Below, one piece after another: positions 7,835 to 8,865 of a stretch of DNA of 64,000 nt (the first letter of the stretch is position 1; every line of letters starts with the position of its first letter). The notes beneath the pieces were generated by a model. The model saw only the letters and a list, made by a program, of their open reading frames with translations. It ran no database searches and had not been told where the DNA came from. A program made the position numbers and the translations under genes. This stretch comes from Mustelus asterias (taxonomy: Eukaryota), in assembly GCF_964213995.1 (NCBI RefSeq), contig NC_135805.1, positions 74,090,001 to 74,154,000 of the forward strand. Reading direction: 5' to 3'.

Positions 7835-8154
7835 TGCTCTTTCAGGATGTCTGTGCCGTGCCCTGCATTTGCTTAAATTAAAATGGAGCATTTTGCTTAA
7901 TTTTAAAAACGCTTTTATTTCACTCTTGTTAAAGTTTTAACTGGCTTCCTGATTCTCTTAGGCCTGTCAACAATAATTTTTTAAATTTATATTGTACCTT
8001 TAATGAAATATCTTGAGGTCATTCACAGGAACAAAGTGTGACACCAGGGAGATATCAGGTCAGATGACCGAATGCTTGGTAAAGAGGTGAATTTTAGGGA
8101 ATGTCTTAAAGGAGGAAAGTGAGGTAGAGAGGCAGTGATGTGTAGGGAAGGAAT

Positions 8155-8554
8155 ACAGTAAGAAGTTTAACAACACCAGGTTAAAGTCCAACAGGTTTAT
8201 TTGGTAGCAAAAGCCACACAAGCTTTCGGAGCTCCAAGCCCCTTCTTCAGGTGAGTGGGAATTCTGTTCACAAACAGGGCATATAAAGACAGAGACTCAA
8301 TTTACATGAATAATGGTTGGAATGCATTTATTCCATCGCATTTATTGCATCGCATTCCAACCATTATTCATGTAAATTGAGTCTCTGTCTTTATATGCCC
8401 TGTTTGTGAACAGAATTCCCACTCACCTGAAGAAGGGGCTTGGAGCTCCGAAAGCTTGTGTGGCTTTTGCTACCAAATAAACCTGTTGGAGTTTAACCTG
8501 GTGTTGTTAAACTTCTTACTGTGTTTACCCCAGTCCAACGCCGGCATCTCCACA
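8155..8554. mobile_element. Fold-back Penelope-like pLTR mini-element #1 with hammerhead motif on each strand
   Basis: 171-bp inverted arms 8155-8325 and 8352-8522 (1 mismatch), 32-bp extension, 12-bp TSD tagggaaggaat at 8143-8154 and 8555-8566; same sequence as the 3' end of the GIY-YIG element at 59586-60240. Confidence 0.9.
8420..8460 (+). ncRNA. Minimal hammerhead ribozyme motif (mirror copy on - strand at 8217-8257)
   Basis: cac-CTGAAGA-aggggc-ttgga-gctcc-GAAA-gc-TT-gtg: CUGANGA and GAAA cores, stem II, palindromic AAGCTT in place of stem III. Confidence 0.75.
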
Positions 8555-8865
8555 TAGGGAAGGAATCCCAGAGATTAGGGTCTAGGTTACTGAAAGCATG
8601 GTTACCAATGGTGGAGCAATTATAATTGGGAACACACAAGAGGCCAGAACTGGAGAATCGCAGCTATCTTGGAGGGTTGTGGTACTGGAGGAGATTACAG
8701 AGATAGGGAGGGACAAGGCCTGGAGATATATCAGAAAAAGGATGAGAATTTTAAAACAAAGGCGTTGCTTGACCAGGAACCAATGGATGTCAACAAGCGT
8801 ATGTGTGATAGAATAACAGGATTTGGAACGAGTGAATATAAAGGCAGCAGTTTTAGATTACCTCA

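Follow-up and report, generated by a model that had tools for sequence, protein, structure and literature searches.

The three inverted insertions in the window, which here means the whole 64-kb stretch of DNA analysed, are short head-to-head insertions of a Penelope-like retrotransposon, probably made by priming from both nicks of the target site on the element's sense RNA, with inner ends that would mark either the capped start of that RNA or the cut of its hammerhead ribozyme. Taken by itself, priming from both target nicks is quite likely. The finished hairpin loci are very probably by-products of insertion and probably inert. The layout of such insertions is already published, and what is new here is the genome-wide map of their inner ends.

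Three inverted insertions and their parent element

An inverted-repeat search of the window recovered paired arms at 8152–8325/8352–8525 (copy 1, 99% identity), 13136–13226/13242–13332 (copy 2, 92%) and 36490–36592/36593–36695 (copy 3, 100%). The arms are 171, 88–90 and 102–103 bp long, and the two arms of a locus differ at 1/171, 7/90 and 0/103 positions, respectively. All seven differences in copy 2 are transitions, several of them at CpG, and, judged from these seven transitions, copy 2 is older than the other two. Each locus carries a tail on one side only (32, 38 and 39 bp in copies 1, 2 and 3), and target-site duplications are present at 3/3 loci, being 12 bp long in copies 1 and 2, with one mismatch in copy 2, and 13 bp long in copy 3.

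The window sequence bears out the description in an earlier note of three real inverted insertions with a target-site duplication, a one-sided tail and a hammerhead motif, and also its view that they are Penelope terminal repeats with minimal hammerheads that formed independently. The spans it gave hold for copies 1 and 2, but copy 3 begins at 36491, as 36490 is also part of the duplication. Features of the three loci and of further family copies are collected in Table 1.

Table 1 Penelope-derived features in the window; positions are those of the window, C3 is the base counted as 0 in the hammerhead core
Feature	Positions	Strand	Basis
Copy 1 left target-site duplication, 12 bp	8143..8154	+	
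Copy 1 tail-less arm, Penelope terminal repeat; core C3 at 8250	8155..8325	-	
Copy 1 filler at the junction (26 nt), containing short duplications	8326..8351	.	
Copy 1 tailed arm with its tail at 8523-8554; core C3 at 8427, cut predicted at 8457/8458	8352..8554	+	
Copy 1 right target-site duplication	8555..8566	+	
Copy 2 left target-site duplication, 12 bp, differing from the right one at one base	13089..13100	+	
Copy 2 tailed arm with its tail at 13101-13138, from the older subfamily B; core C3 at 13219	13101..13226	-	
Copy 2 filler: hammerhead core and stem II copied again in sense orientation (template switch)	13227..13241	.	sequence
Copy 2 tail-less arm, GAAA decayed to AAAA	13242..13329	+	
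Copy 2 right target-site duplication	13330..13341	+	
Copy 3 left target-site duplication, 13 bp	36478..36490	+	
Copy 3 tail-less arm with its inner end at -9; core C3 at 36583	36491..36592	-	
Copy 3 tailed arm with its tail at 36696-36734, the last bases being the ORF start codon; core C3 at 36602, cut predicted at 36632/36633	36593..36734	+	
Copy 3 right target-site duplication	36735..36747	+	
Further family copy, tail-less, extending into the endonuclease end; 5′ limit approximate	40345..40860	-	
Further short single-arm copy, 12-bp duplication	51690..51855	-	
Further copy with terminal repeat and the GIY-YIG end of the ORF, the latter decayed	59590..60241	+	

Other features of the window lie apart from these copies. 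An inverted repeat of 153 bp (80%) with a 160-bp spacer at 42500–42965 gave no match to the Penelope terminal-repeat query. Two tRNA-like sequences above the Rfam threshold (7169–7240 and 25394–25466, both on the − strand) and a weak U2-like match (25982–26201, + strand) were also found. Long open frames of 685 and 583 aa, at 4405–6462 (− strand) and 19130–20881 (+ strand), lie within one repeat family, which we take to resemble CR1-type LINEs. Overall, the repeats of the window resemble those of cartilaginous fish.

Hammerhead positions are counted from C3 of CUGA, set to 0, and the subfamily labels A, B and C were coined in the present analysis. The core, CUGAnGA..GAAA-GC-UH, is intact in 5/6 window arms; in the sixth, the + strand arm of copy 2, GAAA has become AAAA, in agreement with the claim that every arm spans a minimal hammerhead and that one copy 2 arm is mutated. 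Among sampled arms spanning the motif, the core is kept in 62/83, and an extra A at the 5′ side of stem II is found in 62/62. The sequence and pairing features of a minimal type-I hammerhead are present, namely the CUGAnGA/GAAA/UH core, the extra base, a palindromic helix III and paired stems I and II. Stem II had been said to vary while keeping its pairing. It does vary, but GCUCC/GCCUC merely shifts a G-U wobble, and the true compensatory change is found in stem I, which covaries between CAC/GUG and CCAU/AUGG in the arms of sampled pairs. Cleavage is predicted before +31 in subfamily A, to which copies 1 and 3 of the window belong, and before +29 in subfamily B (copy 2) and in most variants of C. 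A covariance-model search for hammerheads, proposed along with these claims, misses the motif: no Rfam hammerhead model matches at E ≤ 1 in the window scan, and only hairpin-driven microRNA models appear, below threshold. Among young copies, variation in stem-loop II far exceeds that in its flanks, with at least 8 variants in 11 loci.

The Penelope type-I minimal hammerheads described in PMC4209133 have the same core boxes, the extra base before stem II, the G10.1-C11.1 pair and the palindromic AGCU that replaces helix III. Such minimal motifs are thought to require a partner RNA, and dual motifs 100–700 bp apart on opposite strands are already mentioned there (PMC4209133).

The parent element, as seen in four long natural copies, is a 3.1-kb unit with an 892-aa ORF and direct terminal repeats. 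Read from its ATG, the ORF matches Pfam RVT_1 (E = 7.6e-10). A GIY-YIG-type end (VVYLIRC..WYIGET) was recognised by eye in the long copies, Pfam giving no endonuclease match, and a Pfam search of a 362-aa fragment matched nothing. In 4/4 long copies, direct repeats flank the ORF as partial-tandem pseudo-LTRs and the tail continues into the ORF ATG. The family thus combines what characterizes endonuclease-bearing Penelope-like elements: an ORF with reverse transcriptase and C-terminal GIY-YIG, pseudo-LTRs, an inverted 5′-truncated copy with a tail, and a target-site duplication. All four long ORFs (4/4) have a CX4CxxC linker, CHSNLCKTC, between reverse transcriptase and endonuclease. A CX2-5CxxC linker at this place is a marker of the Neptune clade (PMC8557442), and by its linker the parent points to a Neptune-type Penelope-like retrotransposon, Nematis likewise having a linker motif.

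Pairs of arms and how they may form

The 3.68-Gb assembly was sampled without selection in fifteen 100-kb blocks at fixed offsets, which add up to 1.5 Mb. Arms were mapped against single-strand natural references, since hairpins align to hairpins. The sample contained 135 arms, and 3 were dropped, one as a split fragment, one as a 26-nt match within simple sequence and one as a tandem duplication of an end. The other 132 arms make up 88 insertions, with 44 of the 88 being head-to-head pairs. Extrapolated from these 44 pairs in 1.5 Mb, the genome would contain about 216,000 insertions and about 108,000 head-to-head pairs.

Exactly one arm is tailed and one tail-less in 44/44 pairs. The duplication score is at least 8 in 39/44, and the duplications are mostly 11–14 bp long. 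Both arms span the motif in only 19/44 pairs, so a ribozyme in each polarity, which the earlier note described as a frequent outcome, is not the rule. Genome-wide, an exact pattern of upstream sequence plus core gives 76,624 matches, and a fold lying no more than 30 nt upstream of the core is found at 2,319 loci, compared with 1 for a reversed control pattern. Therefore, the fold pattern does not arise by chance.

Among the single-arm insertions of the sample, 28/44 have no tail. In 2–3 single-arm copies, an inverted tail stub of 7–19 nt lies between duplication and arm. That the tail-less singles mostly hide such a stub was considered and rejected, as 5/28 pass a loose filter and 2–3 of them are convincing.

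We propose that both nicks of a 12–13-bp staggered target cut would prime DNA copies of the element's sense RNA. One cDNA would begin at the tail end, that is, at the ORF start codon, and the other ~35–40 nt upstream, which fits two start sites found in vitro. Each cDNA would extend 5′-ward until it falls off or reaches the RNA end. Inner ends would then correspond to ends of the RNA template, either the capped start 6–7 nt upstream of the core or the hammerhead's predicted cut. The two cDNA 3′ ends would be joined, in many cases where a small natural palindrome lies, through microhomology, added untemplated bases or brief switches of template. In this course of events, the ribozyme would act as a dimer in the parent RNA, not in the finished hairpin.

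Two published systems come close to this proposal. For Anolis Poseidon in vitro, both target strands are cut and extended and two adjacent internal start sites bound the tail (PMC11167929), as would be the case here; its tail lies 111–118 nt inside the ORF and no RNA ends were seen at the cut, whereas the tail here ends at the start codon and the linker is Neptune-type. LINE-1 twin priming (PMC4859970) likewise involves an inversion from the second nick and an extra G at the 5′ junction. It differs in that both primers here would begin at fixed sites ~35–40 nt apart, because of which the arms usually duplicate the same sequence.

Arm lengths bear on whether one cDNA could suffice. The longer arm is tail-less in 19/44 pairs and tailed in 6/44 (p = 0.015 for 19 vs 6), and in the remaining 19/44 the two arms agree within 15 nt; in 3 of the 44 pairs, the tailed arm consists of the tail only. 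With two primers, the downstream-started arm would tend to be shorter because it would have to displace the other arm. If instead a single cDNA snapped back and copied itself, the cause favored in the earlier note, a tailed cDNA could not produce the 19 pairs in which the tail-less arm is longer, nor could a tail-less cDNA supply the tail in the 3 pairs with a tailed arm that is tail only. A single self-copying cDNA cannot account for these arm lengths. Ends at the sense cut site and the sense-side G, both described below, also indicate a sense template.

Some features do look like self-copying: the 19/44 symmetric pairs, junction fillers holding short re-copies of the arm end, and, at the 11 loci that carry the exact junction of copy 3 genome-wide, arms that agree in stem-loop II exactly (5/11) or within one base (6/11). 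The short re-copies in the fillers indicate template switching at the join. In an arm-identity ranking, which is weak as a measure, the partner arm is the best or tied best match in 8/19 pairs. PMC3846280 proposed self-priming from an antisense template, over which the arm asymmetry here favors two-nick priming on sense RNA. Snap-back as the sole route is largely refuted by this asymmetry and very improbable, and short snap-backs are likely only as part of the joining step.

Inner ends at the predicted cut and upstream of the core

In subfamily A, genome-wide pattern counts of junction-type starts are 354, 316, 1,410 and 394 at +29, +30, +31 and +32. The +31 peak is reduced to ~900 by removal of 35 AA rows per 100. 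A hand tally of 100 arm ends, taken from the first 50 of 1,912 hairpin loci, gave 0, 4, 4, 17, 11, 9, 5 and 4 ends at +28 to +35, with some of the +33 ends being variants that have the cut site there. Internal deletion was rejected as the cause of the +31 ends, as it accounts for 1 copy.

In subfamily C, where stem I is CCAU/AUGG, genome-wide pattern counts are 167, 1,047 and 463 at −1, the site and +1, with positions counted for this subfamily from the predicted cut site. The rows include suspect ones (37/100 at the site are maybe a sequence variant, and 46/100 at +1 resemble a related subfamily), without which the counts at the site and +1 are roughly 650 and 250. Of 98 ends at 49 loci, 23 are at the site or −1, 15 at +1 and 10 at −2, many being ambiguous; elsewhere there are 5 and 5 at +2 and +3, 1 and 3 at −3 and −4, and 1–5 each through −6. 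The cut site of subfamily C offers a 2-nt palindrome or microhomology. Microhomology confounds the pattern counts, as seen at +36 from C3, which scores 809 with about three quarters coming from one palindromic join. In the unselected 1.5-Mb sample, the bin +26 to +32 from C3 shows no excess, with 4/107 ends, and therefore the cut-site class amounts to a few percent of arms.

Two subfamilies thus show a peak of insertion ends where the cut is predicted, in contrast to PMC4209133, which states that in vivo evidence for the Penelope hammerhead is lacking; the role of the Penelope ribozyme is called unclear or without in vivo evidence in PMC4209133, PMC8557442 and PMC11167929. The cut-site peak is likely a fossil trace of in vivo cutting by the Penelope hammerhead.

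The main rival to cleavage keeps the same by-products and places at +31 a stall of the reverse transcriptase, caused by RNA-RNA pairing of AAGCUU or by the folded motif, with the upstream pile-up of ends being due to palindromes and to a hairpin at −27 to −14. Because the AAGCUU palindrome spans +25 to +30, a stall is predicted to end at +31 as well, and junctions do recur at natural palindromes, for example GAATTC and AAAAGCTTTT. The Anolis element points the same way, since no RNA reads were reported at its cut site, and cleavage was not needed in vitro (PMC11167929). However, the +31 peak is one base wide with a 3′-ward tail (20 vs 8 ends), and in subfamily C it remains at the UH site when stem I changes. 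A duplex of 4–6 bp is a weak barrier, which also weighs against a stall, and the G excess at −6 would be left unexplained. A stall is rather unlikely on these grounds, and we lean towards cleavage as the source of the +31 peak, judging from where the ends fall in the genomic copies.

The second class of inner ends lies just upstream of the core. In the 1.5-Mb sample, 38 arm ends fall at −20 to 0, compared with 8.3 expected, and the end hazard there is 0.018–0.035 per nt vs ~0.005 on either side. A fold just past the ribozyme, as the earlier note had it, is in line with this enrichment, but does not hold for copy 1, which folds ~75–100 nt upstream. Nor are fold-back points random and unique to each locus, one of the outcomes named together as refuting that view, given the enrichment and the recurrence of identical junctions. 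The enrichment is not specific to hairpins, as single-arm copies and pairs alike pile up at −20 to 0. Part of the shoulder at −14 to −20 is due to palindromes. A small natural hairpin at −27 to −14 (window 8400–8413; also locus L045), altered in several subfamilies, is a recurrent fold centre. A splice junction was rejected as the cause of the pile-up: no upstream exon is common to the single copies, and the AG is unconserved.

An extra G precedes A(−6). By hand tally, it occurs in 73/100 of the first 100 non-template matches listed, against 16/100 in the control. When two non-template bases are required, it occurs in 50/72 vs 26/100 for the control (p = 1.5e-8; hand tally among the matches listed). 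In a further set it occurs in 74/100 of the first 100 listed, where the partner arm may be the source of the AGG and CAG rows, and among the matches listed it is present in 13/18 AA-prefixed rows, which are unlikely to be derived from the partner arm. At −7, G is found in 68/100 vs 26/56 (hand tally among the matches listed).

The pile-up site lies in CCACTC, an initiator-like sequence. A TCACT initiator-like motif is described in a rotifer element (PMC3846280), and in LINE-1, for which twin priming is described, an untemplated 5′ G is read as a copied cap (PMC4859970). By analogy, the extra G may be a copied cap marking a capped start at −7/−6, a reading that we somewhat favor. Counting against it, subfamily C shows no pile-up at the matching upstream A (204 matches), where G precedes in 53/100 of the first listed.

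Copies that read into the ORF start had been predicted to end at −6, and this was rejected: among 24 such copies, the 5′ end lies at −16 to −3 in 3, within the tail in 9 and at −80 or further upstream in 5, the sequence considered reaching only 50 nt into the ORF for 20/24. The 9/24 with 5′ ends inside the tail, among the tail-ORF-junction copies (L237–L260), end at +93 to +113, three of them at a GCCGGC palindrome. A protein bound at the start sites is possibly what blocks extension there.

Fate of the hairpin loci and comparison with known elements

Identical junctions at different loci had been expected to reveal that the hairpin itself is mobile. The 11 loci with copy 3's junction carry 8 stem-loop II variants and varied ends. 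One junction on 8 variants therefore arises repeatedly, and these loci lack the common junction, ends and diagnostic variants, taken together, of a mobile inverted-repeat family.

A viroid-like function for the rods fares no better. At the three window loci, no read-through strand has more than one sense motif, and in the predicted read-through RNA the core would be paired to its own complement (P unpaired 0.001, with ~29 kcal/mol needed to free it, in the five strands with an intact motif). A foldable ribozyme in each polarity of the rod is thus not what the model predicts. Non-LTR retrozymes (10.64898/2026.07.22.740005) share with the window loci a non-coding nature, an origin from Penelope terminal repeats and a type-I hammerhead. 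They are head-to-tail tandems with at least two same-strand motifs, an arrangement absent from the three loci, which are head-to-head with one sense motif per strand.

More generally, hairpins or single sense arms might be transcribed and remobilised in trans, in a viroid- or SINE-like manner. Besides the junction shared by 11 loci, this would find support in short arms that retain the putative start site, motif and tail, in the internal promoter of the D. virilis element (PMC2377424), and in the rotifer element, where terminal repeats suffice for mobilisation in trans (PMC3846280). The varied stem-loops and ends of the 11 loci, the predicted burial of the core, the full motif missing from at least one arm in 25/44 pairs and the tails that continue past the ATG into ORF sequence (5/44) all stand against it, and we regard it as scarcely credible.

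The published Penelope insertion units, in which an inverted copy plus tail is described (PMC8557442, PMC3846280, PMC2377424), share with the present loci the head-to-head repeat, the 30–40-bp tail at one end, the short duplication and palindromes at the junction. The present family differs in that half of the insertions are pairs, many without ORF sequence, and in that inner ends map to fixed RNA landmarks. In open-access literature, judged by title and the start of the abstract, no prior report was found of cut-site ends, a cap G or twin priming in Penelope genomic copies. At slightly less than an even chance, the ~200,000 insertions amount to a fossil map of germ-line RNA that records a capped start, cleavage in vivo, and two-site priming from both nicks on one sense RNA.

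If so, the ribozyme would be a decapping switch at the extreme 5′ end of an mRNA, and the cut RNA would still be integrated. The end map yields exact predictions on two questions, whether the hammerhead cuts in vivo and how head-to-head repeats originate, and the same count of ends is applicable to any genome rich in Penelope-like elements. The long inverted repeats, ~100,000 by extrapolation from the 44 pairs in 1.5 Mb, are a large potential source of dsRNA.

Larger arrangements of arms were also observed. At two loci (L058 and L060), three or four arms that alternate in orientation are clustered within 2.5–5 kb. At another (L238:5018–5584), an inverted arm is 87% identical to the adjoining young element, which points to another subfamily and to either a nested insertion or a two-template event.
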